A stretch of DNA of 41,714 nucleotides from an uncultured Candidatus Saccharibacteria bacterium (lineage in GTDB: Bacteria; Patescibacteriota; Minisyncoccia; Phycocordibacterales; Zambryskibacteraceae), in assembly GCA_964648835.1 (NCBI GenBank), contig CAZYLR010000001.1, forward strand, positions 1 through 41,714. Reading direction: 5' to 3'. The translations under genes and the position numbers were made by a program. Under the pieces are notes generated by a model, which had not been told where the DNA came from, did no database searches, and saw only the letters and a list, made by a program, of their open reading frames with translations. Positions 1 through 17,526 of this stretch are shown piece after piece. The stretch's first letter is position 1; every line of letters begins with the position of its first letter.

Positions 1-901
1 CCGACACATCAGTAGCGGTGGCGTTTGTCATATCCGGGCCGTTGAAGCTCCACATTCCCACAAGGCCGTTGGTGAGTTTATCATTTTGCGGGGCGTTGAT
101 TTTGGTAATAGCTGTTTGCACAATCTTCGCGGCGCCGGATTTATAGAGCGCCTGCATTTCCGTCGCCGACAACGCGCGGTTGTAGACGCGGACTTCGTCG
201 AGGGAGCCGTCAAATTCGCGGGTATTTCCAGAGTTATTTCCGATGACGAAAGAATTAGAACCACTCGTTGGTAAACTACCCATAATGAAGCCAGCCGTGG
301 TTGTTGCTTTAGCGCCGTTTACATACGGAATACAGTTCTTCGAAGAATCGAGCGTTACAGCGACATGTTGCCATTTCCGAAGAACAATGCTGCCATTACT
401 AGCAAAACAATTAAGATTTCCGCCGGAAGCATTTATGAACAGAGCAAACGTGTCATTAGGCACACCAGCTGTATTAGGATCATATAACGAAAAAGAATAT
501 CCACTTACAAAATCGTTTTCTTTATCCACGATCCTTCCTCGGAAAGAACTGGCAGAACTGCCAAAAGTTCTTGGATAAATCCATGCGCTGATTGTCAGAG
601 CCCCCGTGATATTCAAAGACGCCGGAGTACCCGCAGTCACAAGATCATCATTCGCGTCAAAACTTAACGCTTTCCCCCGTTTTCCTTCCCCCCATGTGGG
701 GCCACCGGTGAGAATTCCTCGGTTTCTATTTCCGCTAAAATCACTGGCGACTGTGCCGGTGTTTTCGTTCATGGGCCAGTAACCGACGAGGCCTAGGTTA
801 GTGGGGGGCTTTGTGAGCACAGCGGCGGGAGCGGCGACAGGAAAAAGTGCGCATATAAGCATTATCGCCGCAATTTTCAATTTATAATTTTCTATTTTCA
901 T
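1..901 (-). CDS. Secreted LamG / concanavalin-A-like lectin domain protein (N-terminal 300 codons; 3' end runs off the window)
   Basis: Absent from the ORF track because no stop lies inside the window. Hand translation of the minus strand from ATG 901-899 gives MKIENYKLKIAAIMLICALFPVAAPAAVLTKPPTNLGLVGYWPMNENTGTVASDFSGNRNRGILTGGPTWGEGKRGKALSFD...REFDGSLDEVRVYNRALSATEMQALYKSG...LVGMWSFNGPDM, open to position 1. The N-terminus looks like a signal peptide. GYWPxxE..G..DxSGNGN and FDGxxDEVRxYNRALS are the LamG_3 signature, and a second repeat starts near the window edge. The ATG overlaps the TGA of the upstream giant gene (ATGA). Confidence 0.8.
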   Translation of the reverse strand, partial: MKIENYKLKIAAIMLICALFPVAAPAAVLTKPPTNLGLVGYWPMNENTGTVASDFSGNRNRGILTGGPTWGEGKRGKALSFDANDDLVTAGTPASLNITGALTISAWIYPRTFGSSASSFRGRIVDKENDFVSGYSFSLYDPNTAGVPNDTFALFINASGGNLNCFASNGSIVLRKWQHVAVTLDSSKNCIPYVNGAKATTTAGFIMGSLPTSGSNSFVIGNNSGNTREFDGSLDEVRVYNRALSATEMQALYKSGAAKIVQTAITKINAPQNDKLTNGLVGMWSFNGPDMTNATATDVS

Positions 902-3900
902 GGTGTTGCTTGCGGTGAGTCAATCGAAGCCGTTGTCTCTACGTCGCCGGAAGGTACGGCTTGCCCCGCCGGAGCCTCTGGCGCAGGCGGGGGCTCCGGG
1001 GCTGGAGCGGGTTCAGCCCCAACGTCTTCCGGAGTCGGGGTCCCGACCCCTTCGGGCGTCGGGAGAGTTGGTTCTGGGGTTGGAGCGGGTTCGGGAGTTG
1101 GGGTTGGTGTTGGGGTTGGTGTTGGGGTTGGTTCTGGTTCTGGGGTAGGAGTTGGTGTCGGTTCCGGGATTGGTTCGGGGATTGGTTCGGGTATTGGTTC
1201 AGGAGTTGGGGTTGGAGTCCCACCCCCACTCGAGATTACGCCACCGAGCAAAGCATCCAGTTGGGCTTTAGTAATACATGTTTCCGCTCCCGACTCGTCG
1301 CTGACGCAAAGTTCTTTGGTACGCACTCGACTGGCGAAAAAGTCACCGATGCCGTTGGCCGCATCGGCGAACCACGCTGTGATACGAGCGAAGAGATTTA
1401 AATTAAGCTCCTGAATTGATTTCACAATCAACGGCAGAAATTCTCCTAGACGCAAGGCATCTGGCAGTCCCTCTTGATTAAGCTGGACCAGTCTGGGGTC
1501 AATTTCATAAACTTCTTCGGCAATAAAACCAATATGCTCTTCGCCGCTAATATCGTCATTGAAGTAAAACGTGACAGGACGCAACGCCATTAGCTCATCG
1601 AGTCCAGTGGTAGAATCAGTAATAGTATTTTTATAACGCTGGCTTGAAGGCTCGCAAGTGGTAGCGCTACCGCCACTATAGAGAAGCTTCGTAGTGTTAT
1701 TGATACATACCGTGAGATTACCACTTGCCGCAGCAGTAAGGCCGTTGAAAGCAACTCCGCCAACAACGGAAAGAGTTTGCCACGGAGTTGTTGTACCAAT
1801 CCCCACATTACCAGCGGTACCACTACCGCCATTACCAATGATAGTGAGAGCAGAGGTCGAAGTGGTCGCCGTGCCTAAGACGGTGGTGGTGGCAAGGTAG
1901 AGATTGCCTCCAGCGTTTCTGAAGGTCCATTGGGCGATGCCTGCTCCGTTAGAGAGAGCCATTTGGGGAGTGGAGGTTGAGAAAACGCTCAAGACGTATA
2001 GCGGGGTGGTCGTTGCGATACCAATTCGGCTATTTTGGATACCGCCCTCCCCGTCCGATTCGGCGTACACGGTGAGAAGCGGGTTGCCGTCGAGTTGAGC
2101 GGTATAGCTCTCTACCGTTCCTACTGCTGAAGCAGAGGTAACCGGCATATCCGCCCACGAGACTATACCCGCGTCGGTGTCAAACGACATCGCTCCGATG
2201 TTGAGATTGTCCACGGAGAGAACGCCGGGCGTAAAGTCGTATTCAACGGCTCCTGAATCAAGGACAAAACCTCCCTCTATGGTAGTGGTAGCTTTCTTAC
2301 CCGTAGTGGTATCAATTCTAAAGATAGGAGTTGCCGATGAGGAGGTAGCGATAGTCCAAGAGAATTGAGTATTATCTTTGATTGTTGTGGTGGCAGATAC
2401 CCCATAATTAAACACAGCCCCCAGACCATTTGCAGGAGTGATTGAGAATAGAGTAGCAGTGGAAGAACCTACTGCAAATGCCGGAACACCAGAAGCCAGT
2501 ACATTTGGATTGATGGAGAATAGACCCCAAGGAGTAGATGATGCTATGCCGACATTCCCACTTGAGCCAATAATAGTAAGCGCGGAAGTGGAAGTGGTGG
2601 CAAAGGTTGAAGCAGAAGAGGTGGCGAAGTAGAGGTTGCCTCCGGCGTTCCTTTGAGTCCAGATGCTGGAAGTCAAGGAAGCGTCAGTGAGAGCAATCTG
2701 CGGTCCGGTGGAAGAAGAGACTGTGAGCGCCCAGACTGGGGTCGAGGTGCCAAGGCCGAGGTTAACGAGAGTGCTAGTGTTGGGGGTAATGCCAAGATAA
2801 GCTCCGGTAGAAGTGGCGAATTTTGAGTTGCCACCACCCGCTCCACCGGTAGCATCCGTGCCGCAGTAGATAGAACCATTGGTCAGAGCCTTCACGTCAC
2901 AGTCTGCGGCGGTGAGGTTGGTGATGGCAAGGGCGGTGGTGGTGGCGTTCGTAGTCGTCGAGTTCCCACTCGCTATGAAGTCTCCGTTTTGATTGATAAC
3001 GAACTTAGTGGTTGAGGCCACTTTGAGGTCTAGAAGATTGCCGGAGAAACCGGTGATTGAATCCACTGCTATCACCGTACCGCTCGTGCCACCGACCACG
3101 GAAAGCTTAGCGTAGGGTGTGGTAGTGCTGATACCAAGAAGTCCGCCTGCTACTGGACCTGAAGAAACAGACGAGCCATTATATATCCCCGTCCCATAGA
3201 CAAGATTCCCGATGTTTAACTGCTGGTTTCCCGTAACTGTGGGGACTTCAACGTTCTGGCCAATCACAATGTTATACGCTCCTGTGGTAATGCCGTATCC
3301 TGCCTGATACCCGAGAAGGGTGTTGTAGTCAGAACCCGTGCCTGCGGAGTATCCTGCTTGATACCCGAGATATGTGCCTCCTTGGTTCGAATATGCGGCG
3401 GTGCCGAAAGCGGCAGAAGACCCCACAGCTACTGTGTTGGCTGCTGAACTATTATAGTAAAGCGCAGCGTAGCCAAGAGCGGTGCTTTCGGAACCAGTGG
3501 TCTTATTGAGGAGCACATAGGAGCCAACAGCGGTGTTGTAGGAGCCAGTGCTGTTGTAGAGCGCAGCGGAGCCGAAAGCGGAGTTGCTGGCGCCGGTGAT
3601 GTTGAAGATGAGCGCAGAGGAGCCGAAAGCGGAGTTTCGGATGCCGGCGGTGTTGGCGGTGAGCGCAGAGGAGCCGAAAGCGGAGTTGTCCTCGCCTTCA
3701 AAATAGCCGCCTTGATTGGAGGAGAGCGCTTTGTAGCCAAGAGCGGAGTTTCGGGTGCCGATGGTGTTGGCAGTGAGTGCTTGATAGCCAACGGCGGTAT
3801 TGTTAATGCCAGAATTATCTGTTGAGGCGCCTGCATTCATGCGTAATGCTTGATACCCAACAGCGGTGTTGTAATCGGTTGATGTAGCATATCTCAATGC

Positions 3901-6900
3901 TTCGTACCCAAGCGCGGTGTTGTAAAGGCCGGAGGTGTCGGAGGTTGAAGTTGAGACGATGTTTGCTCCGGCGTAGAAGCCAGCGAGAGTGTTGAATGTG
4001 GTGGTGGTGGCAGAGAGCACCGTGAGGCCGTTGAGTTGGTATGTAGAGAAATGGTCGAGGTCTATGTTACCAGCGAAGTAACTGTTGCCAGTAACATTGA
4101 GACGGTTTGTCAGAGTGGTGGTACCGATACCGACGTTACCGGCATAAAGATTAGTTGAGCTTGCAGTAGTTGAGAAGAAGTTAGTGGTGGTAGCTTGAGT
4201 TCCAGTAGCATTCACGAAAGTAAAGTTCTGGAGAGTGGTGGAAGAAGTAACCAAGAGTGTGGAGTCTATAGTCGAAGAGGCGGTGGAGAGGAAGCCGTTC
4301 AAGAAGCCGAGGATGGTGGAAGTGGAGTTACCGTAAGTGGTCTGGGTCCACGGGAAGGCGAAGAAGCTCGAACCACTGATGTAGTCCGTACCGGCGATGG
4401 CCGCGATGAGAGAACCCGCGGCATTGGTTTTGAGGAGAGAAGAGGCGATGGAAGAGACGGCGAAGTTAGTGGTCGTAGCGTTGGTTGTAGTAGAGTTTCC
4501 GCTCGCGATGAAGTCTCCATTTTGATTGATAACGAACTTAGTGGTGGAAGCGACTTTGAGGTCAAGAAGGTTACCGGAGAAACCAGTGATTGAATCTGCC
4601 GCTATCACCGTGCCGCTCGTGCCACCGACCACGGAAAGCTTAGCGTAGGGTGTGGTAGTGCTGATACCAAGAAGTCCACCTGCTACTGGACCTGAAGAAA
4701 CAGTGGAGCCATTGTATATCCCCGTTCCATAGACAAGATTCCCGATGTTTAACTGCTGGTTGGAGGTTACAGTGGGCGCCTCTACGTTCTGGCCAATCAC
4801 GATGTTATACGCTCCTGTGGTAATGCCGTATCCTGCCTGATACCCGAGAAGGGTGTTGTAGTCAGAACCCGTGCCTGCGGAAAATCCTGATTGATACCCA
4901 AGGTATGTGCCTCCTTGGTTATTGTATGCGGCGGTGCCTTGAGCGGCTAAATAACCTATGGCTACTGTGTTAGTCGCTGAACCGTTGAAGTAGAGCGCAT
5001 TGGTCCCAAGTGCAGAGTTGTAAGAGCCGGTGGTGTTGGTAAGGAGCGCAGCGAGACCCAGAGCTGAGTTGTTGGAACCGGTGGTGTTATCACGAAGCGC
5101 AATATAGCCAAAGGCGGAGTTAGAGCCAGCAGTGGTGTTGGCGTTGAGCGCCTGATAGCCAAAAGCGGAATTGCTACCGCCAGTGGTGTTGGAGGAGAGT
5201 GCGTACATACCAAGAGCGGAGTTGAAGGATCCAGTGGTGTTGGAGGAGAGTGCGGAAGTGCCAAGAGCGGAGTTTCGCTCGCCGGTGGTGTTGGAGGAGA
5301 GTGCGCCGAGACCAAGAGCGGAGTTGTAAGAGCCCGTTGTGTTGGCAGTGAGTGCCTGATAGCCGAGTGCGGAGTTGTAAAAGCCCGAATTATCCGCCGT
5401 TCCGCTTGAACTCATTCTTAACGCTTGATACCCAACCGCAGTGTTCTGGTCGGTAGAGGTAGCGTATCTCAATGCCTCATACCCAAGCGCGGTGTTGTAA
5501 AGGCCCGAGGTGTTGGAGGTGGAAGTGGAAACAATGTTGGCTCCGGCGTAGAAGCCCGCCAGAGTGTTGAAGGTGGTAGTAGTGGCAGAGAGTACCGTGA
5601 GGCCGTTGAGCTGGTATGTTGAGAACTGGTCAAGATTAACGTTTCCGGCGAAGTAACTATTGCCAGTAACATTGAGACGTTCTGTGAGAGTAGTGGTACC
5701 GATACCGACGTTACCGGCATAAAGATTAGTGCTTGATGCTGTGGTTGAGAAGAAGTTGGTTGTAGTCGCACTCGTTCCCGTGGCATTGACGAAAGTAAAG
5801 TTCTGGAGAGTGGTGGAAGAAGTAACCAAGAGTGTGGAGTCTATAGTGGAAGAGGCGGTGGAGAGGAAGCCGTTGAGAAAACCGAGCGTAGTTGAAGTGG
5901 AGTTGCCGTAAGTGGTCTGGGTCCACGGGAAAGCGAAGAAGCTTGAGCCGGCAACGTAGTCTGTGCCGGCGATGGCCGCGATGAGAGAACCCGCGGCGTT
6001 GGTTTTGAGGAGAGAAGAGGCGATAGATGAAATAGCAAGTGCTGTAGTGGTGGCATTGGTGGTAGTGGAGTTACCGGTGATTAGTAAGTTACCCGCAATG
6101 GTGGAAGAAGCAGCCGTGTTGAGAAAACCGCCAGAGAGGGTCAGTAAGGAAGTGGTGGCCGAACCGCCGTAAGCTGGATGAGTCCAAGCATCGTAGGTGG
6201 AGAGTTTGTTGTTGAAAGTGGTCCAGTCCGCGGAAGCGAGACAACCGAAGACTGAACTCGAAGCAGTATCGCAAGCGAGGTCATCGTCGGTGAGAGTTAG
6301 TCCCAGACCACCGGTGAGATTGGTCTCTGTTGAGATATCAATGGCAGTGCCCAAGTCCACGTTAAATTGATTACCCGAATAGGTTAGACCAGTACCGGCA
6401 GTGGTGGTCGCTCCTGAATAGACTAACCCTGTGGCATCCACTCCCAATCCCCCGGAAGAAAGGGTTGGTAGTTTGAAAGAAGAGTTGATAGTGGAAGAGG
6501 CGGTGGAGAGGAAGCCGTTCAAGAAGCCGAGCGTGGTGGAGGTGGAGTTGCCGTAAGTTGTTTGAGTCCACGGGAAGGCAAAGAAGCTTGAACCACTAAC
6601 ATAGTCCGTGCCGGCGATGGCCGCGATGAGAGAACCCGCGGCGTTGGTTTTGAGGAGAGAAGAGGCGATGGAAGAGACGGCGAAGTTAGTGGTCGTGGCG
6701 TTGGTAGTGGTAGAGTTCCCGCTCGCAATAAAGTCTCCATTTTGATTGATAACGAACTTGGTGGTGGAAGCCACTTTCAAGTCCAGCAAGTTGCCAGAGA
6801 ACCCGGTGATAGCATCAGCCACTATCACCGTACCACTCGTTCCGCCTACCACCGAAAGTTTCGCATAAGGAGAAGTAGTGCCGATGCCGACATTTCCTCC

Positions 6901-8382
6901 GGCTCTCCATACATTCGTTCCATCCGATGCCCAAGTTCCGGTTGTCGAACCGCCGACGACACTTCCAGCCCAATAAAGATCTCCTCCAGCGTTATAAAGA
7001 CGGTTAGAGGTAACTGATGGGACAGAAACGGAAGCAAAATACATCGCTCCGTTTAAAGCCAGAGCGTCAGAGGGAGAGGTGGTGCCGATGCCGACGTTGC
7101 CTGTTGACTGCTGCACAACGAATTGATTAGTGCCGACGGCGAACCCACCGGTTGAAATTGTTGAAGTGGCTGAAGTTGATGTCGCGGAAAAATTGGTGAA
7201 TGTAAGAGAGCCCGCATTCGCCAGACTGAATCCAGCGCCATCGATATTTGACGTCCATGGAGTTTGCGCGCCATCGCCGCAGCCGGTACACGTTCCGGTC
7301 ACAGTGATATTTTCAAATATCCCATTGGTCGTAAGGTTAGAAATAATACTTGAGAGCCGACCAGAATCACTGTCACTCTGTCTAGTAACTATATTGTATG
7401 TGATAGGAATAACTTCATTAACTCTAAATGATTCGAAATCGGTTGCCGCGACACTGGGGGAAGAAGTGTAAACCACCAATGGGCGGAGAGCGCCAATTTC
7501 AGCACGCACGTAACTTTCCAATTCCGTCTTGAGTTCAGATTTCAGAGACTCCAGATTGATTGAAGAAGCGGAAGTAGTTAGAGCCCGCGATGGTGGAGAT
7601 GGCGTAACGGGAGCAGTGTAGGTTAATTGTGGCGGAGTGACAGAGAAGAAGAAGTTATCTAAAGCAATTTGTTTCAGATATTGAAAACTACTGACAACGC
7701 TATCGAATAATTTTCCAACGCCGTCAAAGAAAGAGACGGTGGCAAGTTCAGAGTGAGCGAAAGTGTCCAAAGCTCGGCTTTGGACAAGAGCACTCAGAAA
7801 CTCTTTCGGAATATTAGTGAGAGTTTCTGTTTTTTCTCTAACCTCCATTGCCACTCTCTGATTAGTATGCTCAAGAGTAGCAAAACCGGTGCCTATGGCA
7901 ATGAGAAGCACGAGAGAGAGTGCGACAGCTCGTCCGACAAGAGTAGAAGTCCAGGTAGGTTCGATATAACAGCTTTTTTTAGAGAGCTCGGGTAGCCGAG
8001 GTCTATCATCATTTTCATAAGTAAATACAGGGTTATCTAAAGATCTCGCCTCGCCCGCCGTAGTCTCTGACGAAGGCTGGGACAAAATAATTGGGAGCGA
8101 TTTTTCCAAATTCTCCAAGGTCAGACCTTTCTGAATTCCTAAGGTCTGACCTTTAGGTCCAGAGACTAAAGATTTTTTTGTTTTTCCAAGTTGCCGATTT
8201 TTCTTGTATTCAACGAGAGAAGCAAAATCAACGTACCAACTTTTACCAATCAGCTGTCCCGGAATTTTTTTTGCTCTACAAAGTTGGCTAATGTAATCAC
8301 TTGCGTAACCAATTTTTTCTGCTGCTCGGACAGCCGAGATATATTCTTTCCCATCCGAGAAAATAGGATTTACCATCAACAT
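898..8382 (-). CDS. Giant (2494 aa) membrane-anchored surface fibre/adhesin-like protein: N-terminal HTH-like domain, single TM, repeat-rich Ser/Thr/Asn/Gly ectodomain, peptidase S74 (tail-fibre intramolecular chaperone) domain, Pro/Thr/Glu-rich tail
   Basis: Single uninterrupted 7.5 kb ORF. The domain calls come from motifs in the translation and are listed in the sub-features below. Confidence 0.9.
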   Translation of the reverse strand: MLMVNPIFSDGKEYISAVRAAEKIGYASDYISQLCRAKKIPGQLIGKSWYVDFASLVEYKKNRQLGKTKKSLVSGPKGQTLGIQKGLTLENLEKSLPIILSQPSSETTAGEARSLDNPVFTYENDDRPRLPELSKKSCYIEPTWTSTLVGRAVALSLVLLIAIGTGFATLEHTNQRVAMEVREKTETLTNIPKEFLSALVQSRALDTFAHSELATVSFFDGVGKLFDSVVSSFQYLKQIALDNFFFSVTPPQLTYTAPVTPSPPSRALTTSASSINLESLKSELKTELESYVRAEIGALRPLVVYTSSPSVAATDFESFRVNEVIPITYNIVTRQSDSDSGRLSSIISNLTTNGIFENITVTGTCTGCGDGAQTPWTSNIDGAGFSLANAGSLTFTNFSATSTSATSTISTGGFAVGTNQFVVQQSTGNVGIGTTSPSDALALNGAMYFASVSVPSVTSNRLYNAGGDLYWAGSVVGGSTTGTWASDGTNVWRAGGNVGIGTTSPYAKLSVVGGTSGTVIVADAITGFSGNLLDLKVASTTKFVINQNGDFIASGNSTTTNATTTNFAVSSIASSLLKTNAAGSLIAAIAGTDYVSGSSFFAFPWTQTTYGNSTSTTLGFLNGFLSTASSTINSSFKLPTLSSGGLGVDATGLVYSGATTTAGTGLTYSGNQFNVDLGTAIDISTETNLTGGLGLTLTDDDLACDTASSSVFGCLASADWTTFNNKLSTYDAWTHPAYGGSATTSLLTLSGGFLNTAASSTIAGNLLITGNSTTTNATTTALAISSIASSLLKTNAAGSLIAAIAGTDYVAGSSFFAFPWTQTTYGNSTSTTLGFLNGFLSTASSTIDSTLLVTSSTTLQNFTFVNATGTSATTTNFFSTTASSTNLYAGNVGIGTTTLTERLNVTGNSYFAGNVNLDQFSTYQLNGLTVLSATTTTFNTLAGFYAGANIVSTSTSNTSGLYNTALGYEALRYATSTDQNTAVGYQALRMSSSGTADNSGFYNSALGYQALTANTTGSYNSALGLGALSSNTTGERNSALGTSALSSNTTGSFNSALGMYALSSNTTGGSNSAFGYQALNANTTAGSNSAFGYIALRDNTTGSNNSALGLAALLTNTTGSYNSALGTNALYFNGSATNTVAIGYLAAQGTAAYNNQGGTYLGYQSGFSAGTGSDYNTLLGYQAGYGITTGAYNIVIGQNVEAPTVTSNQQLNIGNLVYGTGIYNGSTVSSGPVAGGLLGISTTTPYAKLSVVGGTSGTVIAADSITGFSGNLLDLKVASTTKFVINQNGDFIASGNSTTTNATTTNFAVSSIASSLLKTNAAGSLIAAIAGTDYISGSSFFAFPWTQTTYGNSTSTILGFLNGFLSTASSTIDSTLLVTSSTTLQNFTFVNATGTQATTTNFFSTTASSTNLYAGNVGIGTTTLTNRLNVTGNSYFAGNIDLDHFSTYQLNGLTVLSATTTTFNTLAGFYAGANIVSTSTSDTSGLYNTALGYEALRYATSTDYNTAVGYQALRMNAGASTDNSGINNTAVGYQALTANTIGTRNSALGYKALSSNQGGYFEGEDNSAFGSSALTANTAGIRNSAFGSSALIFNITGASNSAFGSAALYNSTGSYNTAVGSYVLLNKTTGSESTALGYAALYYNSSAANTVAVGSSAAFGTAAYSNQGGTYLGYQAGYSAGTGSDYNTLLGYQAGYGITTGAYNIVIGQNVEVPTVTGNQQLNIGNLVYGTGIYNGSSVSSGPVAGGLLGISTTTPYAKLSVVGGTSGTVIAVDSITGFSGNLLDLKVASTTKFVINQNGDFIASGNSTTTNATTTALAITNLTAADCDVKALTNGSIYCGTDATGGAGGGNSKFATSTGAYLGITPNTSTLVNLGLGTSTPVWALTVSSSTGPQIALTDASLTSSIWTQRNAGGNLYFATSSASTFATTSTSALTIIGSSGNVGIASSTPWGLFSINPNVLASGVPAFAVGSSTATLFSITPANGLGAVFNYGVSATTTIKDNTQFSWTIATSSSATPIFRIDTTTGKKATTTIEGGFVLDSGAVEYDFTPGVLSVDNLNIGAMSFDTDAGIVSWADMPVTSASAVGTVESYTAQLDGNPLLTVYAESDGEGGIQNSRIGIATTTPLYVLSVFSTSTPQMALSNGAGIAQWTFRNAGGNLYLATTTVLGTATTSTSALTIIGNGGSGTAGNVGIGTTTPWQTLSVVGGVAFNGLTAAASGNLTVCINNTTKLLYSGGSATTCEPSSQRYKNTITDSTTGLDELMALRPVTFYFNDDISGEEHIGFIAEEVYEIDPRLVQLNQEGLPDALRLGEFLPLIVKSIQELNLNLFARITAWFADAANGIGDFFASRVRTKELCVSDESGAETCITKAQLDALLGGVISSGGGTPTPTPEPIPEPIPEPIPEPTPTPTPEPEPTPTPTPTPTPTPEPAPTPEPTLPTPEGVGTPTPEDVGAEPAPAPEPPPAPEAPAGQAVPSGDVETTASIDSPQATP
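1066..1228 (-). repeat. Low-complexity GGTTGG/GGTTCG microsatellite-like tract encoding (PT)n/(PE)n/(PEPI)3
   Basis: ggggttggtgttggggttggtgttggggttggttctggttctgg and gggattggttcggggattggttcgggtattggttc. Protein: TPTPTPEPIPEPIPEPIPEPTPTPTPEPEPTPTPTPTPTPTPEP. Confidence 0.9.
1385..1647 (-). other. Peptidase S74 / intramolecular chaperone auto-processing domain (tail-fibre / endosialidase type)
   Basis: SSQRYKNTITDSTTGLDELMALRPVTFYFNDDISGEEHIGFIAEEVYEIDPRLV...LPLIVKSIQELN. This matches the family pattern S(D)xRxKxNI...L..L.pv.f.y......hiGfIAqEv..v.Pelv. The Ser-x4-Lys spacing (codons 2246 and 2251) fits the Ser/Lys dyad of this family. Confidence 0.75.
3430..3830 (-). repeat. Second, more diverged 17-residue NSA(L/F)G..NT(T/A)G repeat array
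   Basis: Protein: NTAVGYQALTANTIGTR NSALGYKALSSNQGG.. NSAFGSSALTANTAGIR NSAFGSSALIFNITGAS NSAFGSAALYNSTGSY NTAVGS... It sits at the equivalent position in the next 1.5-kb unit. Confidence 0.8.
4960..5400 (-). repeat. 51-bp (17-residue) tandem repeat array NSALGxxALxxNTTGxx, about 8 units
   Basis: caagagcgg recurs at 5211, 5262 and about 5313 (period 51). Protein: NSALGYQALTANTTGSY NSALGLGALSSNTTGER NSALGTSALSSNTTGSF NSALGMYALSSNTTGGS NSAFGYQALNANTTAGS and so on. The style resembles beta-helical repeats of tail-fibre or YadA-head type proteins. Confidence 0.85.
7878..7946 (-). other. Single predicted transmembrane helix of the giant protein (about aa 147-169)
   Basis: Hydrophobic stretch LVGRAVALSLVLLIAIGTGFATL preceded by about 145 polar residues. 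There is no N-terminal signal peptide. Confidence 0.7.
8200..8350 (-). other. N-terminal cytoplasmic HTH-like (excisionase/MerR HTH_17-like) module of the giant protein
   Basis: KEYISAVRAAEKIGYASDYISQLCRAKKIPGQLIGKSWYVDFASLVEYKK follows the pattern hS..EAA..lG.S...i..l...GKIP...iG..w.....l seen in excisionase-type HTH domains. The neighbouring small protein at 8630-8872 has the same pattern. Confidence 0.5.
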
Positions 8383-8446
8383 AAATTATAAATCTCGGCT
8401 GTGGAAAACCCTATGGATAAAGTGTGAAGAACTGGGGATAATAAAA

Positions 8447-8540
8447 CTAGCTTCTAGGTACTAGGGACTAGGTGCTAGTTTGCATACACAAAAATTTAGA
8501 ATTTAAAGCTAGTCCCTAGAACCTAGTCCCTAGAACCTAA
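8447..8540. promoter_or_regulatory. CTAG-heptad repeat arms forming an 18-25 bp imperfect inverted repeat in the divergent intergenic region (candidate operator or cruciform)
   Basis: CTAG starts at 8447, 8454, 8461, 8468 and 8475, and at 8509, 8516, 8523 and 8530, an exact 7-nt phase in each arm. Left arm 8461-8478 ctagggactaggtgctag matches the reverse complement of 8516-8533 (ctagggactaggttctag) at 17/18 positions. The right arm is a perfect 14-bp tandem (ctagtccctagaac x2). It lies between the start of the giant gene (8382) and the start of the HTH gene (8630). Confidence 0.6.
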
Positions 8541-8563
8541 CTAATTCTTATCCCCAATAGACC

Positions 8564-8592
8564 TTGCTAGATAATATAAGTTAATGTAATAA
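8564..8592 (+). promoter_or_regulatory. Possible sigma70-like promoter for the HTH gene (TTGCTA-17 nt-TAATAA)
   Basis: ttgcta at 8564-8569 and taataa at 8587-8592 with a 17-nt spacer, about 38 nt upstream of ATG 8630. The background is AT-rich, so specificity is low. Confidence 0.25.
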
Positions 8593-8629
8593 TAATTATG
8601 AGTAATTAGTAATGTTTATATAAGTATAT

Positions 8630-8927: not shown

Positions 8928-9533
8928 TCACCTTTTACTCCCATTATTCCCTTTGCTTTTTTGTTCTTCAAGCCAATGATCAAAATCTTTTTCAGTTTGC
9001 TCTCTTAATCTCAATCTTTCTGAAGTTGGCAAAGTATTTTCCGTACTCATTTTTTCTACTAAGGACTTTTGTAACCTCTCTATTAAAAAGTTTAGTTCTT
9101 TAGCTCGAAGTTTTAATTGAACCACCGGAGGTAACTCTGGGTCTAAAGGGTAAAAAGGGATGGACTCAAGGGGTGGAAATTTTTCTCCCATTTTTCCCAT
9201 TACTCCCCTTTCACCCATTACTCCCTTTATTCCCATTAACTCTGGATAGTACCCCTTCCAGATGTCAGTGAAATCTTCCTCTAATTCCGCATTTGATGCC
9301 ACGGCGTATCCAAGAAACTCATAATACTCTTTCGTTGAATTCCTCTTCCATCCTTCAGTAATGTTCTGCTTAGTAGACCGTGCCGAACGATTCATCTGAT
9401 CAGCCAGAGCAATGGCTGTTTTAGATCGAGGGAATAACAAAGTTAGATCGGCACAGAGACTCTGAAGTTCATCCGATTTTCTATAGACTAATAAATCTCT
9501 GTAGCCGTATGGATTGCGAGTTGGCTTGATCAT
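8928..9533 (-). CDS. Four-helix-bundle protein (23S rRNA intervening-sequence protein family) with a Gly-rich insertion and C-terminal extension
   Basis: YRDLLVYRKSDELQSLCADLTLLFP...ADQMNRSARSTKQNITEGWKRNSTKEYYEFLGYAVASNAELEEDF matches the family pattern (..W.ka..L...iy.l...fP......l..Q.rRaa.Si..NIaEG..R.s.kE...FL.iA.gS..El...). The start overlaps the gatB stop (ATGA). Confidence 0.8.
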   Translation of the reverse strand: MIKPTRNPYGYRDLLVYRKSDELQSLCADLTLLFPRSKTAIALADQMNRSARSTKQNITEGWKRNSTKEYYEFLGYAVASNAELEEDFTDIWKGYYPELMGIKGVMGERGVMGKMGEKFPPLESIPFYPLDPELPPVVQLKLRAKELNFLIERLQKSLVEKMSTENTLPTSERLRLREQTEKDFDHWLEEQKSKGNNGSKR

Positions 9534-10948
9534 GCTTCCCCATTATTCCCATTACCTCCCTTTCTCCCTTTTAAAATTTCTTGCAAAACGACTGGGTTTG
9601 CCCTACCTCCCGATTTCTTTATAGCCTGACCAACTAGAAAAGAGATTGGGGCTTCTGGATTCTCTTTCAACACTTCTTTAGCAATTTTTTCCAAAACTTC
9701 CCTGTCACTCTCCTGAATCAAATTTTTATCATTCGCTATAGCTCTTGGTTCACCCCCTTTCTCTTGAATAATCTTCAAAATATCTTTCGCTCCGCGCGAA
9801 GAAATTTCTCCAGCAGATATCATCTTCACAACCTCGGCCAGACTTCTGGCAGGTACCAGAGTTTTCAGGTCACTAGTGACATAATTAGAAGCAAGTTGAA
9901 CAAGCTCCGCGTCTTTAAGAATTTCCGCAACACTTTCGATAAGTCTTCCCCACTCTGGTTCTCGAATATAAATTTCTATATCGCCCTCCTTCAATCCAAA
10001 ATCTCTTTTATACCTCTCTCTCTTTTGCCAAGGCAGTTCTGGCAGAGACGTTCTCAATTTCCTCTCATCAAACTCCGGAATAGCTTTTATAAAAAGCCTC
10101 GGCAAATCAGGGTCCGGGAAATAGCGATAGTCATGGGCCGACTCCTTCAATCTTTGCGAAAAAGTAATTTCCTTGTTTTCATCCCATCCTCTCGTTTCCT
10201 GCACCACCTCTTCCCCTTTCTCGAGCATTTCAATCTGGCGTTCCATTTCGAATTTAATTGCTTTCTCGACGACTTTAAAAGAATTGAGGTTTTTTACTTC
10301 GACTTTGGTACCCAATTTTCCTACCCCCACTCCGCCAAGGCTTCGCGGGGCAAGAGAGATATTGGCCTCGACTCGCATCTCCCCTTTCTCCATATTGGCT
10401 CCGCTCACATCCAAATACTTTAGTAGAAGTTGCAATTCGCGAGCAAAGTTGGATGCCTCTGTTGCAGTTTTTATTACCGGCTCCGTCACAAGCTCCATAA
10501 GTGGCACCCCTGCCCTATTGAAATCCAACAAGGAATACTCAACATTACTTGCCCCGAGCATAGTCGAGGGGTGAATTGATTTTGCTGTATCCTCCTCCAA
10601 GTGGATGCGAGTCAATTTCACCCCCATCAGTTCTCCTCCGCTCACCAACGGATTTTTGTATTGGCTGATTTGATAACCTTTCGGGATATCCGGATAAAAA
10701 TAGTTTTTGCGATCAAATTCTGTATAATCGGCAATTTCCCCATCGAGAGCAACCCCAAGACGTAAGACTTTCCCCACTGCATCTTGATTTATTACTGGTA
10801 AGGTCCCGGGATATCCCATACATACCGGGCAAATGTTTACGTTCGGACGTTTCTCATTCGAATCATTCTTGGAATTACAGAACATCTTTGTCCTTGTCGC
10901 GAGCTCCACGTGAATTTCCAACCCTACTGTCAAAATATATTCACTCAT
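9530..10948 (-). CDS. gatB: Asp-tRNA(Asn)/Glu-tRNA(Gln) amidotransferase subunit B
   Basis: VGLEIHVEL.T.TKMFC...NVNICPVCMGYPGTLPVINQDAV...RKNYFYPDIPKGYQISQY...RVEANISL are canonical GatB motifs. Length is 472 aa. Confidence 0.95.
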   Translation of the reverse strand: MSEYILTVGLEIHVELATRTKMFCNSKNDSNEKRPNVNICPVCMGYPGTLPVINQDAVGKVLRLGVALDGEIADYTEFDRKNYFYPDIPKGYQISQYKNPLVSGGELMGVKLTRIHLEEDTAKSIHPSTMLGASNVEYSLLDFNRAGVPLMELVTEPVIKTATEASNFARELQLLLKYLDVSGANMEKGEMRVEANISLAPRSLGGVGVGKLGTKVEVKNLNSFKVVEKAIKFEMERQIEMLEKGEEVVQETRGWDENKEITFSQRLKESAHDYRYFPDPDLPRLFIKAIPEFDERKLRTSLPELPWQKRERYKRDFGLKEGDIEIYIREPEWGRLIESVAEILKDAELVQLASNYVTSDLKTLVPARSLAEVVKMISAGEISSRGAKDILKIIQEKGGEPRAIANDKNLIQESDREVLEKIAKEVLKENPEAPISFLVGQAIKKSGGRANPVVLQEILKGRKGGNGNNGEA

Positions 10949-11945
10949 AACTTAAATTTTTTGCGAGAGCATTGCCAAACTCTTTGACCAACTTGTCGTC
11001 TAGTATGGAAATTGGAAATACGTGCTCGGTAATTTTTTTCAAAATCCTAAGCTTCCTTTCCTGTTCTTCTTCGGTAAGGATATCTACTTTCGTCAAGACA
11101 ATGACTTCCGACTTTCCCATTATGCCCGCCCGCTTCGACTCGCGAAGCGAGTCGGGCAGGTCTTTATTATAGAGCTCAAGTTCGTTTCGAACCACTCTGT
11201 AGGCCTTGACTGGGTCATCGATTTCAGAGGAGATGCAATGGACAAGCGCCTTGGTGCGCTCAATGTGGCGTAGGAATTTGTGACCAAGACCTTTACCTTT
11301 GGCCGCTCCTTCTATTAGCCCAGGAATATCAGCAAGGATAAGCCCATAAAAGTTTCCTAAAGCCGGCTCAAGTGTAGTAAAGGGGAAGTCGCCTACTCTA
11401 GATTGAGCGCTGGTGAGAGCATTTAATAGGCTTGATTTGCCAGCATTTGGTAGACCGATAATGCCGACATCGACGACCAAGAGAAGCTCAATGTGGAAAT
11501 CCGCTTCTTCTCCGGGGACGCCAGGGGTGGACTCTTTCGGGCGGATATTAGTTGAACCCTTAAAATGTTCATTTCCTAATCCCCCCCTGCCACCTCGAAG
11601 AAGCATCACTCTTTCAGCGTCTTTTAGAAGATCGATGGAATACCCGGTGGAGAGATTGGTCAGACGCGAGCCGACAGGTAGCTTTATTAAAACATCTTTT
11701 CCAACTCCACCTTGTCTGTTATCTTTGGCGCCATCTTCGCCACGCCGAGCTTCAAAACCTCCTACATTGCGATAGGCAGAGAGAATACCAATATCCCGCA
11801 CGCTAAGTGCATAGACATCTCCGCCTTTGCCACCGTTACCGCCCGAAGGACCACCATGGTCTTTACCTTTCTCATGTCGCCAACGCACCACACCATCACC
11901 GCCACGACCTGCCTTAAGGTGAAGAGTTAATTCATCTATAAACAT
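10941..11945 (-). CDS. obg: GTPase Obg/CgtA
   Basis: MFIDELTLHLKAGRGGDGVVRWRHEKGKDHGGPSGGNGGKGGDVY is the Obg-fold Gly-rich N-domain. G motifs are GLPNAGKSSLL and DIPGLIEGA. Confidence 0.95.
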   Translation of the reverse strand: MFIDELTLHLKAGRGGDGVVRWRHEKGKDHGGPSGGNGGKGGDVYALSVRDIGILSAYRNVGGFEARRGEDGAKDNRQGGVGKDVLIKLPVGSRLTNLSTGYSIDLLKDAERVMLLRGGRGGLGNEHFKGSTNIRPKESTPGVPGEEADFHIELLLVVDVGIIGLPNAGKSSLLNALTSAQSRVGDFPFTTLEPALGNFYGLILADIPGLIEGAAKGKGLGHKFLRHIERTKALVHCISSEIDDPVKAYRVVRNELELYNKDLPDSLRESKRAGIMGKSEVIVLTKVDILTEEEQERKLRILKKITEHVFPISILDDKLVKEFGNALAKNLSYE

Positions 11946-12095
11946 CAGTATAAATTCTAATATCTAATTTCTAAATCCTAAATAAGCTACAATTTTCCAA
12001 CTTTAGTCTTTGCATTTTTCCACTATCGCCCCGAAGATTTTTCTTAGTTCTATAGCCTCTTGAATAAGTGACTGCCTGTCTAATATATATGATTC

Positions 12096-12362
12096 CTAAG
12101 GTTCTGCAAGAGATAGCCAATACTCACTTTCTTTTGCTTCTTTTCTAGAGATTTTGATTCTCATCACAAAATCTTTCTTACTTAGAGATTCGTTAGCCTC
12201 AATATAATTTGCACCAACCGAACCAGACGAACGTATGAGCTGTTTGCCATATTCTATATTTGATATGTTCCTTGGTAACTTATTTACATAGTCTCTGACT
12301 TTCATTGCAAATGTTCTAGACCTGTCTTCCAAATCGTAGACTCTCTTTGGTATTTCAGTCAT
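12096..12362 (-). CDS. Four-helix-bundle protein (23S rRNA IVS family), ending at an in-frame TAG that cuts off the last helix (see finding)
   Basis: FAMKVRDYVNKLPRNISNIEYGKQLIRSSGSVGANYIEANESLSKKDFVMRIKISRKEAKESEYWL is typical of the family. The family's C-terminal helix is encoded in the same frame immediately after the TAG (to TAA at 12003-12005). Confidence 0.75.
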   Translation of the reverse strand: MTEIPKRVYDLEDRSRTFAMKVRDYVNKLPRNISNIEYGKQLIRSSGSVGANYIEANESLSKKDFVMRIKISRKEAKESEYWLSLAEP

Positions 12363-12408
12363 TGAGATTTATTTAGAGTTTAGTGTTTAGGATTTAGGAT
12401 TTTACTAT

Positions 12409-13281
12409 TTATGTGTTTAGAGCAATTTCTGCAAGCGCCATTGCTCCTTCTTTAGTTCCAGCTACCGCCGTAAAGAGCGCCCTGTGACAAAATATTGCGT
12501 CCGGAACTCCCGTAATCTCCTGTAGGTCTTTATCGATTTTCCCCGCCCAGGCGACAGGCAGAGGTCGGCGTGAAATGTAACCAGTATCTTGAACCGCCCG
12601 GAGACCCCATCGACCGTCATTCCTAGGATAAACCACAAACATTACTTCCGGTTTATCTGACAAAACGCGCTTCCACGGCAGCTCTTCTAACAAAATAAGA
12701 ATTCTTTTATCAGGACTCGTCTCTAACGCCTCTCTAACCTTGGCCTCACCGATAATAAGACTTTTTACTTTAGCAATTTCGCGCGTCAAAAGTTCCTTGG
12801 CAATTATGACTAGTTCCATAAAAATTCTGTAAAGGTCTTCTTCGCTCTCATGAAGACTAGGCAAGAATGAGTAAAGGAAATCGATGATGCTGTATGCTCT
12901 GACATTTGCAAAACGGTAATCAGCGATAGCTACGCCATTGTCATGGGCGTCCAGAGGCTGCATCAGGATAGTGTCTATTAGTTCCATTTCTTCTTTACCT
13001 CCGGTAAGTGTTTCTCCGAACTTTTTCCAGACTAGTCCGCAAGAAGCATATGGGATACCATTTGGTCTTTCGCCGGCGCCTCCAGGCTGGTGGTGATCGA
13101 AGCGATTTTTTGCCGGATCATAGACCATCCCAACATCAACAACGTAGTCGGCCGTGACAATTTGATCTTTCTCACGAGTACGAACCACTTTGGCCTCGCC
13201 AATAACGAGAACTAAAATTGCTACAGCAAAGATATCGTCGGCTTGAAAAGAGCCGCTATGAGTGAGAATGGTTTTTGCCAT
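12409..13281 (-). CDS. MYG1 / UPF0160 family metal-dependent hydrolase
   Basis: ILTHSGSFQADDIFAVAIL...DVGMVYDPAKNRFDHHQ matches the MYG1 HsGsFHaDe...D.GG.YD....rfDHHQ signature. Confidence 0.85.
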   Translation of the reverse strand: MAKTILTHSGSFQADDIFAVAILVLVIGEAKVVRTREKDQIVTADYVVDVGMVYDPAKNRFDHHQPGGAGERPNGIPYASCGLVWKKFGETLTGGKEEMELIDTILMQPLDAHDNGVAIADYRFANVRAYSIIDFLYSFLPSLHESEEDLYRIFMELVIIAKELLTREIAKVKSLIIGEAKVREALETSPDKRILILLEELPWKRVLSDKPEVMFVVYPRNDGRWGLRAVQDTGYISRRPLPVAWAGKIDKDLQEITGVPDAIFCHRALFTAVAGTKEGAMALAEIALNT

Positions 13282-13795
13282 AAATTTTATTGGCCCAAGC
13301 GAGAAGCAAGATATAGAGAGAAACTGTCAGGGACATTGTGGGGATGGTGATATAGCCAAATGCCATTACATAAATTTTGGAGCATGCGCCCTCTCCGTCG
13401 GTGCAAGCTAGAAGAGAAGAGCCGCCAAAATCAACTTGGGCTTGATACGCCGCGATGATTCCACCCAAAATGATGAGGGGCAGAACGTAGGAAAAGACTG
13501 ACCTGTCCTTGCGCCATAAGGCCACGGCAAAGATAAAGACGGTCGGATAAAGGAAAACTCTCTGCCACCAACATAAGACGCATGGTTCAAAGCCTACAAT
13601 CTCGGAGTAGAAGAGACTACCAATTATCGCGGTAAGCGCCACCAGAAAAGCCAGAATGAGAGCGTGCCTTCCAAGCCAATATGTAATCTCCCTTCCCCAA
13701 AAATTCCTAAAGACCAAAGATAAAAGCAAAATGACAAAAACAATATGAGAAACCAGCGCTAAATACGGCAGTAGTAAAGTGATATTTTCAATCAT
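13256..13795 (-). CDS. Disulfide bond formation protein B family (DsbB/BdbC-like) membrane oxidoreductase
   Basis: There are 4 hydrophobic segments. The first loop has the CxxC motif FEPCVLCWWQRVFLYP, and a second Cys pair occurs at ACTDGEGAC. Confidence 0.8.
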   Translation of the reverse strand: MIENITLLLPYLALVSHIVFVILLLSLVFRNFWGREITYWLGRHALILAFLVALTAIIGSLFYSEIVGFEPCVLCWWQRVFLYPTVFIFAVALWRKDRSVFSYVLPLIILGGIIAAYQAQVDFGGSSLLACTDGEGACSKIYVMAFGYITIPTMSLTVSLYILLLAWANKIYGKNHSHS

Positions 13796-14171
13796 TGCTT
13801 TCCGGCAATGGGCAGCTCGTCGCTGCGCTCAAGCGTTCCAAAGAAAGAGTGCCGGTCTCTCTGGTACCGTCGGAAAATTGCCATGTCGGGTATCCCGTAA
13901 TAGAGGCGTCCTTACAGACTTGAAGCTGTCCTCTACCGTCGGGTGTCGAACATTCGACACGCGGCAAAAGACTGGCGGAACGACCAAACAGAGCCTCCTG
14001 ATTCTTGCAGTTAGGACACCAGAACGCGCCGTAATAAGTCGCCCCGCTCTCTTTAATACAGGAAGCAAATGCGTCTAGTTTACCCGATCTCCCAGGCGCT
14101 TTAACAAGCCAGAGAATGCCGCCAACTATCAACACTAGTATTAGAAGCCATATTAATTTATTTTTTCCCAT
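13788..14171 (-). CDS. Membrane-anchored thioredoxin-fold protein (CPNC active site), similar to the Trx-like domain fused to bacterial VKOR
   Basis: N-terminal anchor LIWLLILVLIVGGILWL. GATYYGAFWCPNCKNQEALFG...VEC...C....ITGYPTW resembles the VKOR-associated Trx-like domain pattern (GakmYGAyWCPHC..Qk.lFG...yvEC......C....I..yPTW). Confidence 0.7.
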   Translation of the reverse strand: MGKNKLIWLLILVLIVGGILWLVKAPGRSGKLDAFASCIKESGATYYGAFWCPNCKNQEALFGRSASLLPRVECSTPDGRGQLQVCKDASITGYPTWQFSDGTRETGTLSLERLSAATSCPLPESND

Positions 14172-14213
14172 ATTGAGTATTATAGATGAAAAATTTTCAT
14201 GTTGCTATGAGAC

Positions 14214-14456
14214 TCACAAGCCCTTGTATGTGTTGCTGTTTCTCCTGTCAATTTTAATTATTTCAATTTTTCTTTCATCCATATAAAATATGATTCTTAT
14301 TCTTGCTTGTCTTAATCTGTACAGCTTATCAAATCCCTTTAGCTTCTTGAAATCTAGACTTCCAAACTCTCTAGATTTCACCAAGCCCAAACATTTTTCC
14401 ACGATAACTCTATCTTTTACAGACAATTTACTTAGAAACTTATCTATTCTGTTCAT
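14214..14456 (-). CDS. Type II toxin, RelE/ParE superfamily
   Basis: KFLSKLSVKDRVIVEKCLGLV...DFKKLKGFDKLYRLRQARIRIIFYMDE..IEIIKIDRRNSNTY matches RelE-like toxins (kfLkkL.kkd...i...l......d.KkLkg...lyRlRvGdyRiiy). It overlaps the upstream antitoxin by 17 nt. Confidence 0.7.
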   Translation of the reverse strand: MNRIDKFLSKLSVKDRVIVEKCLGLVKSREFGSLDFKKLKGFDKLYRLRQARIRIIFYMDERKIEIIKIDRRNSNTYKGL

Positions 14457-14700
14457 TGAGTCTTTTTAGAGACTTAAGAACACTCGCAATCGGTACACCA
14501 CCTGGCTTTATAGAAGTAAAATCAACTACTGTTTCCCAGAGAGAGTCGTCATCTTCGTCAAATGGAACCACTTTAAATACCGGCTTAGATCTTTTAACTA
14601 CTGTAAAAGACTCCCCCTTGCCTAAGCGGCTAATGTATTTAGAAGTGTTCAGTCTCAAATCCTTGAGACCGATTATCTGGTTCTTTGCCTTAGTAGCCAT
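14440..14700 (-). CDS. Type II antitoxin, Phd/YefM-like
   Basis: 86 aa. IGLKDLRLNTSKYISRLGKGESFTVVKRSKPVFKVVP matches the Phd/YefM N-terminal pattern. It lies immediately upstream of and overlapping the toxin. Confidence 0.65.
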   Translation of the reverse strand: MATKAKNQIIGLKDLRLNTSKYISRLGKGESFTVVKRSKPVFKVVPFDEDDDSLWETVVDFTSIKPGGVPIASVLKSLKRLNEQNR

Positions 14701-14797
14701 GCATGAAGTTTATCTTTAAGTAAACTTTAAGTCAATCCTCACGCCCCATGACACTTTTTATCCCAGTAGTAGAAGCTTCGCTTCACTACGGGACTGC

Positions 14798-14833
14798 GAA
14801 ATGTCACTTGCCGTGACATTTCTTGTATTTTTT
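14798..14833. promoter_or_regulatory. Perfect 10-bp inverted repeat (gaaatgtcac-ttgcc-gtgacatttc) followed by a T-run on the + strand; candidate TA operator or orphan hairpin
   Basis: The repeat is seen directly at 14798-14807 and 14813-14822, with ttgtatttttt following. It lies about 100 nt upstream of the antitoxin start, in the secA to TA spacer. Confidence 0.35.
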
Positions 14834-14877
14834 ACCGCTACCATCCTCCTTCGCTAAAGCTACGGCGGGACTCCGCT

Positions 14878-17391: not shown

Positions 17392-17422
17392 AGGACGCCT
17401 ATTTTAACACGTTTTAGACCAA

Positions 17423-17450
17423 GAAAAAACACCCTTGTGGGGTGTCTTTT
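17423..17450 (-). terminator. Intrinsic-terminator-like hairpin plus U-tract about 35 nt upstream of the secA start
   Basis: The minus strand reads aaaagACACCCcacaaGGGTGTttttttcttgg. The stem is 17429-17434 with 17440-17445, and the T-run corresponds to + strand 17424-17428. Confidence 0.55.
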
Positions 17451-17456
17451 CTAATC

Positions 17457-17513: not shown

Positions 17514-17526
17514 TGTGTTGTGTCTC

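Follow-up and report, generated by a model that had tools for sequence, protein, structure and literature searches.

The giant gene and its product

The window analysed here is the whole stretch of 41,714 nucleotides of contig CAZYLR010000001.1 (GenBank assembly GCA_964648835.1, entered as an uncultured Candidatus Saccharibacteria bacterium). Close to its left end lies a giant open reading frame (ORF) for a protein of 2494 residues, referred to below as the giant protein. An N-terminal head of the helix-turn-helix (HTH) type is followed by a single transmembrane (TM) helix, a long repetitive shaft related to phage tail fibres and a C-terminal Peptidase_S74 chaperone domain. The gene stands between a gene for a secreted LamG-like protein and a divergent gene for a small MerR-like protein, beyond which runs a gene order that recurs in several Parcubacteria lineages. 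The coordinates of these features are collected in Table 1. A first-pass annotation, made from the letters of the sequence, had described the product as a cell-anchored trimeric fibre tethered through an N-terminal domain resembling a DNA-binding fold; the analysis reported here follows it up.

Table 1. Positions of the giant gene, the parts of its product and the adjoining features in the window
Feature	Residues	Position (nt)	Strand	Basis
Giant ORF with stop codon (898-900)	1-2494	898..8382	minus	ORF read from ATG
Winged HTH of MerR/excisionase (HTH_17-like) type, cytoplasmic	7-66	8185..8364	minus	AlphaFold2 (AF2), Foldseek, family evidence
Poorly conserved linker, predicted disordered	67-118	8029..8184	minus	Model confidence, alignment
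Conserved cytoplasmic linear motif TYENDDRPRLPELSKK	121-136	7975..8022	minus	Giant and short relatives
Single TM helix, putative signal anchor (N-in/C-out)	146-172	7867..7947	minus	Hydropathy, AF2
Conserved juxtamembrane region (~190 residues), giant forms only	181-370	7273..7842	minus	phmmer
Fibre shaft	371-2245	1648..7272	minus	Self-comparison, DNA repeats, PHROG, phage matches
First 17-residue NSALG..NTTG array, 10 units	963-1138	4969..5496	minus	Repeat analysis, PHROG
Second 17-residue NSALG..NTTG array, 8 units	1488-1632	3487..3921	minus	Repeat analysis
Peptidase_S74 intramolecular chaperone	2246-2385	1228..1647	minus	Pfam, alignments, AF2 and Foldseek
S74 catalytic pair	Ser2246; Lys2251	1645-1647; 1630-1632	minus	Alignment
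Pro/Thr/Glu-rich low-complexity tail	2386-2494	901..1227	minus	Composition
Downstream gene for a secreted 498-residue Laminin_G_3 (LamG-like) protein, 5' part cut by the window edge		1..901	minus	Domain and signal peptide
Conserved divergent intergenic region with inverted repeat TGGGGATAA (8548-8556) / TTATCCCCA (8433-8441)		8383..8629		
Divergent stand-alone MerR/HTH_17 protein of 80 residues		8630..8872	plus	Pfam MerR E 1.6e-11, HTH_17 E 6.5e-9
Wzy_C/TPR-SecA-DsbB-MYG1-Obg-GatB gene order		8928-19843	minus	Comparison with loci L001-L030, several Parcubacteria lineages

A search of a contig index found the identical 2494-residue product encoded by seven contigs. The contigs listed with it derive from four samples, three of JGI and one of ENA, and their flanking genes partly differ. 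The longest exact DNA repeat inside the gene measures 80 nt, and the repeat copies are 81-89% identical in DNA. Because the protein recurs in four samples and the exact repeats are short, an assembly chimera is very unlikely and the ORF is taken to be genuine. Complete homologues of 1585-1805 residues carry the same head, and some of them share the C-terminal end too. The clustered protein collection lacks the exact giant protein, though the contig index holds it. As to the organism, which stems from groundwater, the 80-residue neighbour is identical to NCBI entries labelled 'Parcubacteria group bacterium', and the most similar loci belong to Zambryskibacteria and related metagenome-assembled genomes (MAGs); the earlier placement among the candidate phyla radiation (CPR) thus stands, within the Parcubacteria group. 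GC skew across the giant gene was left aside, as it mirrors the amino-acid composition.

Thr (14.8%), Ser (11.8%), Gly (11.1%), Ala (10.7%) and Asn (7.1%) make up much of the part of the protein beyond the membrane, in keeping with the Ser/Thr/Asn/Gly-rich ectodomain reported at first. The tail-fibre-like repeats span about 1850 residues, and self-comparison of the shaft reveals a tandem super-repeat of ~520 residues (742-1260 against 1261-1806). The 17-residue arrays noticed earlier are real: they comprise 18 units of the form N[ST]A[LFV]G..NTTG in two arrays, mostly with a 17-residue period, and appear in the DNA as 51-nt repeats. The PYAKLSVVGG...FVINQNGDFIASGNSTTTNATTT unit had been counted four times. 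Three copies are full (residues 505, 1245 and 1756), and the fourth is the GNSTTTNATTT end of the unit standing alone at residue 770. No solved relative of the 17-residue arrays was found by sequence in the PDB; the NSALG repeats presumably resemble YadA head repeats. The giant protein has no Pfam match to the C-terminal beta-barrel anchor or the YadA head and stalk domains that would be expected of a YadA-like trimeric autotransporter. The ectodomain had also been called saturated with N-x-S/T sequons. It holds 45 of them against 44.8 +/- 5.4 in composition shuffles, that is, the level given by chance for this composition, and the argument for N-glycosylation therefore fails.

The shaft is related to the fibres of phages. 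PHROG tail-spike and virion-structural families match residues 938-1147 with E of 1e-35 to 1e-38. A translated search with residues 962-2385 gave 86 phage tail-fibre or tail-structural records at 35-43% identity; the Roseobacter phage CRP-1 record covers 55% of the query (query residues 2-1375) and reaches into the S74 domain. In contrast, the head (residues 1-178) has no match among 50,697 phage records. The protein is thus chimeric, with a phage-type fibre joined to a non-phage head, as had been suspected. The GC content at third codon positions (GC3) lies at 0.30-0.40 in the head, TM helix and juxtamembrane region and at 0.52-0.58 in the shaft, which exceeds every other gene of the window that was checked; neighbouring genes have values of 0.36-0.48. 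This seam in codon composition, at about residue 370 (nt ~7272), fits a mosaic origin; repeat-specific codon usage could also contribute to it.

The C-terminal end was identified from the start as a Peptidase_S74 domain, and this is confirmed. PF13884 matches residues 2246-2299 (E 6.7e-10, 39.5 bits against a cut-off of 22). In alignments, Ser2246 and Lys2251 (SSQRYK) fall on the S....K of the chaperone domains of phage S16 and T5 fibres, and they match the SSxRxK consensus in a family alignment of 27 relatives. The catalytic residues S578 and K583 of MYRF have the same i/i+5 spacing (PMC3742443). An AF2 model of residues 2191-2388 gives the S74 core a predicted local distance difference test (pLDDT) score of 89-97. 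In Foldseek its best solved match is the MyRF ICA domain (7dc3, probability 1.00, E 1.6e-3), followed by 3gud (0.98); the 'intramolecular chaperone' entry 3gw6 is matched as well, as are 267 viral S74 tail-fibre models at E<=1e-3. Beyond the expected fold, the model has a long helix and an end made of a Cys2359/Cys2369 hairpin plus helix. Both are kept in a Patescibacteria subfamily with the pattern WFADAANGIGDFFA.RVRTKELC....G.ETCITK.QLD.LL. The tail that follows contains 40 Pro, 20 Thr and 14 Glu among 109 residues, and relatives have similar tails after S74.

The cytoplasmic head and its family

At the N-terminal end, an AF2 model built on an alignment of 14 sequences has pLDDT of ~90 or higher over residues 11-60 and the topology strand-strand-helix-helix-strand-strand-helix. 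In local Foldseek comparisons the closest structures are those of RacA, TraN, Pukovnik Xis, BldC and RdfS, with probability 0.84-0.89, TM-score to the target of 0.56-0.71 and a root-mean-square deviation of 2-3 A over ~55 residues. The segment is net basic (13 Lys/Arg against 6 Asp/Glu in residues 7-70) and retains the G-R/K-x-W wing motif typical of HTH_17. HTH_17 is matched at E<=0.01 in only 4 of 14 family members; one family member, P0030, passes the Pfam cut-off with 28.0 bits. The head profile gave no match against PDB sequences, nor did NCBIfam against the whole giant protein. HTH_17 remains below threshold in the giant protein itself; the fold assignment rests on the confident model together with the family evidence. 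A MerR/excisionase-type winged helix is, on the predicted structure, a good assignment that falls short of formal significance. The earlier description of about 145 HTH-like residues is supported by this model as to the fold; its extent shrinks to residues 7-66. Beyond this domain the linker has pLDDT <50 over residues 72-117 and varies in length and sequence across the alignment, and the motif TYExDxRPxLPELSKK that follows is kept in giant and short family members alike, with P131 nearly invariant.

Only one segment, at about residues 144-172, passes the 19-residue Kyte-Doolittle threshold. AF2 models it as a helix (residues 146-172, pLDDT ~90), and a TM helix is present in all homologues. 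Hydropathy shows no N-terminal hydrophobic signal sequence, so the original observation of a single hydrophobic helix without a signal peptide is borne out by both methods. The juxtamembrane region is matched by phmmer in 14 loci (E 5e-10 to 3e-53). The ten ectodomain cysteines all occur in close pairs (365/368, 704/714, 1828/1840, 2226/2243 and 2359/2369), the two cytoplasmic cysteines lie far apart, and the conserved gene neighbourhood includes DsbB and a thioredoxin-like gene. The TM helix is most simply read as a signal anchor that keeps the head in the cytoplasm. The grounds for this reading are the missing signal peptide, the folded basic N-terminal domain, the paired ectodomain cysteines together with DsbB, and the classical signal peptide of the adjoining LamG protein. 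The latter also indicates that the head is not the default export route of the organism.

A profile of head and TM helix, searched against 1.84 billion proteins, retrieved 7094 cluster representatives at E<=1e-3, of which 511 reach E<=1e-30. The top matches are mostly of 300-350 residues and consist of two tandem HTH units, a linker and the TM helix; a minority are giants of 868-3935 residues. Short family members in general measure 250-350 residues. Across the 30 loci compared, head-bearing proteins range from 250 to >3636 residues, and the ectodomains carried by the head measure ~30 to >3800 residues and have unrelated folds. Head and S74 recur together with unrelated shafts: in locus L014, which has two giants in tandem, each with S74; in P0095, with a right-handed beta-helix; and in P0113, with LVIVD repeats and an intein. 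This recurrence points to a modular architecture of constant head, variable shaft and terminal auto-chaperone. The giant of locus L002 has a subthreshold Peptidase_G2 in place of S74, and this relative may, to judge by its sequence, use that other known tail-fibre chaperone. The presence of the same head on many giant and short proteins lends weight to the suggestion of an anchoring or export module specific to CPR.

In Kaiserbacteria-type loci a short gene of the two-HTH-plus-TM type is followed by more giant ORFs with an HTH head, at least 3005 and at least 2917 residues long. The view that this short gene is the positional orthologue of the giant gene was softened, since the HTH-headed giant ORFs lie directly downstream of it. 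A recent duplication relating the head to the 80-residue MerR-like neighbour was also considered and is unsupported (pairwise E 0.023, weak similarity). The homologue P0113, of 3935 residues, has, at residues 1025-1344 of its ectodomain, an intein into which an NYN domain is inserted. In the present organism an NYN domain is encoded by a gene of its own, two genes downstream of the giant gene (L031 18986-19504).

Cellular S74 tail-fibre-like annotations and bitopic HTH proteins are already known. Entries named 'tail fiber domain-containing protein' occur in Patescibacteria, Fibrobacteres and other MAGs; they carry PF13884 and are relatives of the C-terminal part of the giant protein. The label misses the HTH-TM head, the conserved locus and the shared region after the chaperone. 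The literature searched contains no description of the head family, nor of S74 fibres in Patescibacteria. What is new is that an HTH-TM head is combined with an S74 fibre, and with it the size of the head family, the conserved locus and the modular use of the head with terminal auto-chaperones.

A proposed anchored fibre and the possible role of its head

We propose, with moderate confidence, that the giant protein is a bitopic surface fibre with its N-terminus inside and its C-terminus outside the cell, probably trimeric, with a lineage-specific head, a phage-type shaft and an S74 chaperone. The TM helix would act as a signal anchor, and the C-terminal part of ~2300 residues would be threaded out through Sec. 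Outside the cell, S74 would nucleate a homotrimer from the C-terminal end, as in phage fibres, and after folding would cut itself off before Ser2246. The cut would release a fragment of 249 residues, made of the chaperone and the Pro/Thr tail, and expose the distal tip. The mature trimer would stay on the cell by way of its three TM helices and then serve as a surface fibre or adhesin; a role in contact with a host or a surface is a reasonable guess. In this arrangement the membrane anchor would substitute for the virion-attachment domain of a phage fibre. If the head still binds DNA, the trimer would also bring three HTH domains together at the base of the fibre and link the fibre to the chromosome or to the conserved region of its own promoter, which is the weakest step of the scheme.

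The closest models are the S74 fibres of phages (K1F endosialidase, T5 pb1 and S16 gp37). Their shaft repeats are homologous to those of the giant protein, and they too end in an S74 domain of the expected fold, complete with the Ser/Lys pair. They trimerise from the C-terminal end and then cleave themselves, and the same logic is presumed for the giant protein. Unlike these phage genes, the giant gene is chromosomal, sits in a conserved housekeeping neighbourhood and lacks virion genes around it. A cytoplasmic HTH and a TM helix replace the N-terminal virion-attachment part, folding would take place outside the cell, and a Pro/Thr-rich tail follows the chaperone.

Several points weigh against this proposal. 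Trimerisation, cleavage, membrane insertion, orientation and surface exposure are steps that we infer. S74 domains operate in the cytoplasm, in phage-infected cells and in MYRF, and their working after Sec export is assumed here. The sequence past the cleavage site is conserved, and in some C-terminal relatives (P0176, P0177 and P0191) an Ig-like PF16403 domain follows the Pro/Thr-rich tail, which is odd for a discarded piece; going by these sequences, the released fragment may have a function of its own. Searches of the PDB by sequence returned only chance-level matches for the shaft repeats, leaving them without a solved structural relative. As regards the head, the Foldseek E-values are weak (0.3-1, all >0.1). 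HTH_17 (PF12728), to which the first-pass annotation had pointed, scores 14.7 bits with the whole protein and 21.7 bits with residues 1-71, below the Pfam cut-off of 27, and other head fragments score 17.9-19.1 bits, also below it. Finally, the occurrence of one head on many proteins, together with a linear motif, fits protein docking equally well.

The head may bind DNA or dock a protein. DNA binding is favoured by the fold, the basic charge, the structural neighbours, all of which are DNA binders, the TraN-like tandem pair in the short forms and the conserved promoter region; we put it at about an even chance, or slightly better, that the head binds DNA. TraN has an internal tandem HTH pair, and short head-family members with their two tandem copies resemble it in this. 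The DNA-binding domain of RacA, as well as TraN, BldC, Xis and RdfS, are soluble, unlike the membrane-anchored head. Among bitopic proteins, RodZ and ToxR/CadC are laid out like the giant protein, with an N-terminal HTH in the cytoplasm, one TM helix and a C-terminal domain beyond the membrane. In these proteins the outer domain is small and has a sensory or structural role, against the fibre of ~2300 residues here. The HTH is of the Xre type in RodZ and an OmpR-type winged helix in ToxR/CadC; a Pfam search found neither an Xre-type nor an OmpR-type match on the giant protein.

RodZ offers the alternative that has to be taken most seriously. Its cytoplasmic HTH binds MreB, and on this precedent the same fibre could carry a head that acts as a protein-docking module, tying the giants to a cytoplasmic partner such as a cytoskeletal, polarity, export or assembly factor. 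The occurrence of the head on several different giants in one gene cluster and on short proteins, the short conserved linear motif next to the membrane, and the subthreshold HTH_17 scores, which suggest divergence from classical DNA binders, would all suit such a role. The retained basic character and G-R/K-x-W wing motif speak against it, as do structural neighbours whose good matches are all DNA binders, and no candidate partner protein has emerged. We regard docking as a tentative possibility. A bolder reading, rather unlikely as a whole, takes the head as a working DNA-binding domain that occurs across Parcubacteria and physically ties the giant fibres to the chromosome or to their own conserved promoter region. 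Engagement or trimerisation of the fibre outside would in that case be read directly by DNA-bound domains inside. The protein would then be a contact sensor or nucleoid anchor in one polypeptide, and a membrane-tethered DNA binder of a kind undescribed in bacteria.

A contact-sensing, membrane-bound transcription factor is a distinctly unlikely reading. Here the fibre would be the sensor and the HTH the output, either in the manner of ToxR/CadC or through release by regulated proteolysis as in MYRF. MYRF indeed unites a DNA-binding-type domain, a TM helix and an S74/ICA domain in one polypeptide and is a type-II membrane protein, as the giant protein would be. The promoter region, with its inverted repeat, is strongly conserved, and so is the partner gene for the small MerR-like protein. 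In MYRF, however, the order is DNA-binding domain, ICA and TM helix, the first two lie on the cytoplasmic side, and cleavage frees a DNA-binding trimer. The giant protein has the order HTH, TM helix, shaft and S74, and the DNA-binding folds are unrelated (Ndt80-like in MYRF, MerR/Xis-like here). Because S74 and the HTH lie on opposite sides of the membrane, S74 cleavage cannot free the HTH, and a MYRF-like release is excluded. Ectodomains that vary so widely in length and fold are unlike a dedicated sensor, and no site-2 protease was seen in the window.

Quite improbable is a variant in which the TM helix is an internal cleavable signal sequence and the fibre is released as an S-layer-like, secreted or wall-bound protein, leaving an HTH-TM stub behind. 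Read directly, the helix ends in ...GTGFA/TLE, a possible signal-peptidase site, and free-standing HTH-TM genes of 250-350 residues exist that resemble such a stub. The small-x-small motif, however, is not kept among homologues, and the juxtamembrane region is conserved together with the head in all giant forms. A folded N-terminal extension of 145 residues is, moreover, typical of signal anchors and not of cleaved signals.

That the gene is a phage or prophage tail-fibre gene rather than one for a cellular surface protein is highly improbable. The homology of shaft and S74 to phage tail fibres is what such an origin would predict. Against it stand the chromosomal neighbourhood of Wzy_C/TPR, SecA, DsbB, MYG1, Obg, GatB and MerR-like genes, largely conserved in 30 genomes, the absence of virion, terminase or integrase genes nearby, a head that has no phage match, and a membrane anchor where a virion-attachment domain would sit. 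Barely conceivable, lastly, is an ORF misjoined at its repeats: the gene is highly repetitive and its database homologues are mostly fragments, yet different assembly pipelines arrived at the one identical product, no exact repeat is longer than that given above, and complete homologues match the head and in part the end.

If the anchored fibre proposed above is correct, it bears on a general question. A life attached to other cells is proposed for CPR/Patescibacteria, and their contact molecules are largely unknown outside a few cultured Saccharibacteria. The locus would provide a concrete, recurring candidate for such a molecule, in which a phage-type fibre is re-used by a cell with a membrane anchor at the virion-attachment end. 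The conserved head gives a simple sequence handle for cataloguing giant surface proteins in fragmented metagenome assemblies, and gatB, the small MerR-like gene and the conserved intergenic region together make a tractable entry to regulation. As a bacterial counterpart of MYRF, the protein is also of interest for the question of how S74 chaperones were recruited outside viruses.

Neighbouring genes and the divergent intergenic region

The head gene lies downstream of the largely conserved gene order in 30 genomes. GatB is found upstream of it in 29 of the 30 loci; some loci are without Obg, DsbB or MYG1, and many contigs end early. The divergent 80-residue MerR-like gene is directly upstream of the head gene in loci L001-L021 and in L028. 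Its product consists of the DNA-binding domain only and is of BldC-like size. Across L001-L021 it is 75-95% identical, against 57-72% for GatB in the same loci, and thus outconserves its housekeeping neighbours. No copy was detected in the Kaiserbacteria-type loci; there, the short gene with two HTH units and a TM helix occupies the place between gatB and the giants.

Both ends of the intergenic region are strongly conserved in at least 12 syntenic loci. In most loci the right arm of the inverted repeat TGGGGATAA...TTATCCCCA lies ~50 nt away from the ATG; the insert between the arms varies from ~75 to ~375 nt, and the arms co-vary between loci. In L013, for example, the arms are TGTGGATAA/TTATCCACA, a perfect DnaA-box consensus. 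Two further DnaA-box-like 9-mers, TTATCCATA and TTTTCCACA, come after the inverted repeat. The insert in the present window is a long palindrome (RNA fold -61 kcal/mol, z -4.7), for which Rfam returned no family and chance miRNA-like matches only. The region may serve as an operator pair, as a promoter regulated by DnaA or as something origin-like.

On the other side of the giant gene, the start of the LamG gene overlaps the giant stop codon by 4 nt, and the 498-residue product, which has a classical signal peptide and two Laminin_G_3 domains, would be translationally coupled to the giant protein through this overlap. In all, two such genes, this one included, lie downstream of the giant gene (L031 17482-18978 and 20605-22812); they encode secreted, neurotoxin-receptor-binding-like proteins of 498 and 735 residues. 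In L002 too, LamG genes are found downstream of the giant gene. A 111-residue ORF at 243-578 on the plus strand is antisense to the LamG gene, matches no family and is probably spurious.

The large glycosylation locus that the first-pass annotation had seen in the window is present from ~17.9 kb onwards, with Wzy_C/TPR, a flippase, GT4/GT2/GT9 glycosyltransferases, a TagF-like protein and YfhO. Its character is that of a cell-envelope glycan or teichoic-acid-type locus, and no STT3-type oligosaccharyltransferase was found in the window. That the Wzy_C/TPR protein O-glycosylates the Ser/Thr-rich fibre would be speculation.

Two minor observations concern the surroundings. Three genes of the 23S_rRNA_IVP (four-helix-bundle) family occur within ~15 kb round the giant gene, one in the window at 8928-9533 on the minus strand and two at L031 6021-6287 and 20213-20581. 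A gene for a RuBisCO large-chain-like protein, followed by RpiB, lies at 36434-38232 on the plus strand among glycosyltransferase and TagF-like genes.

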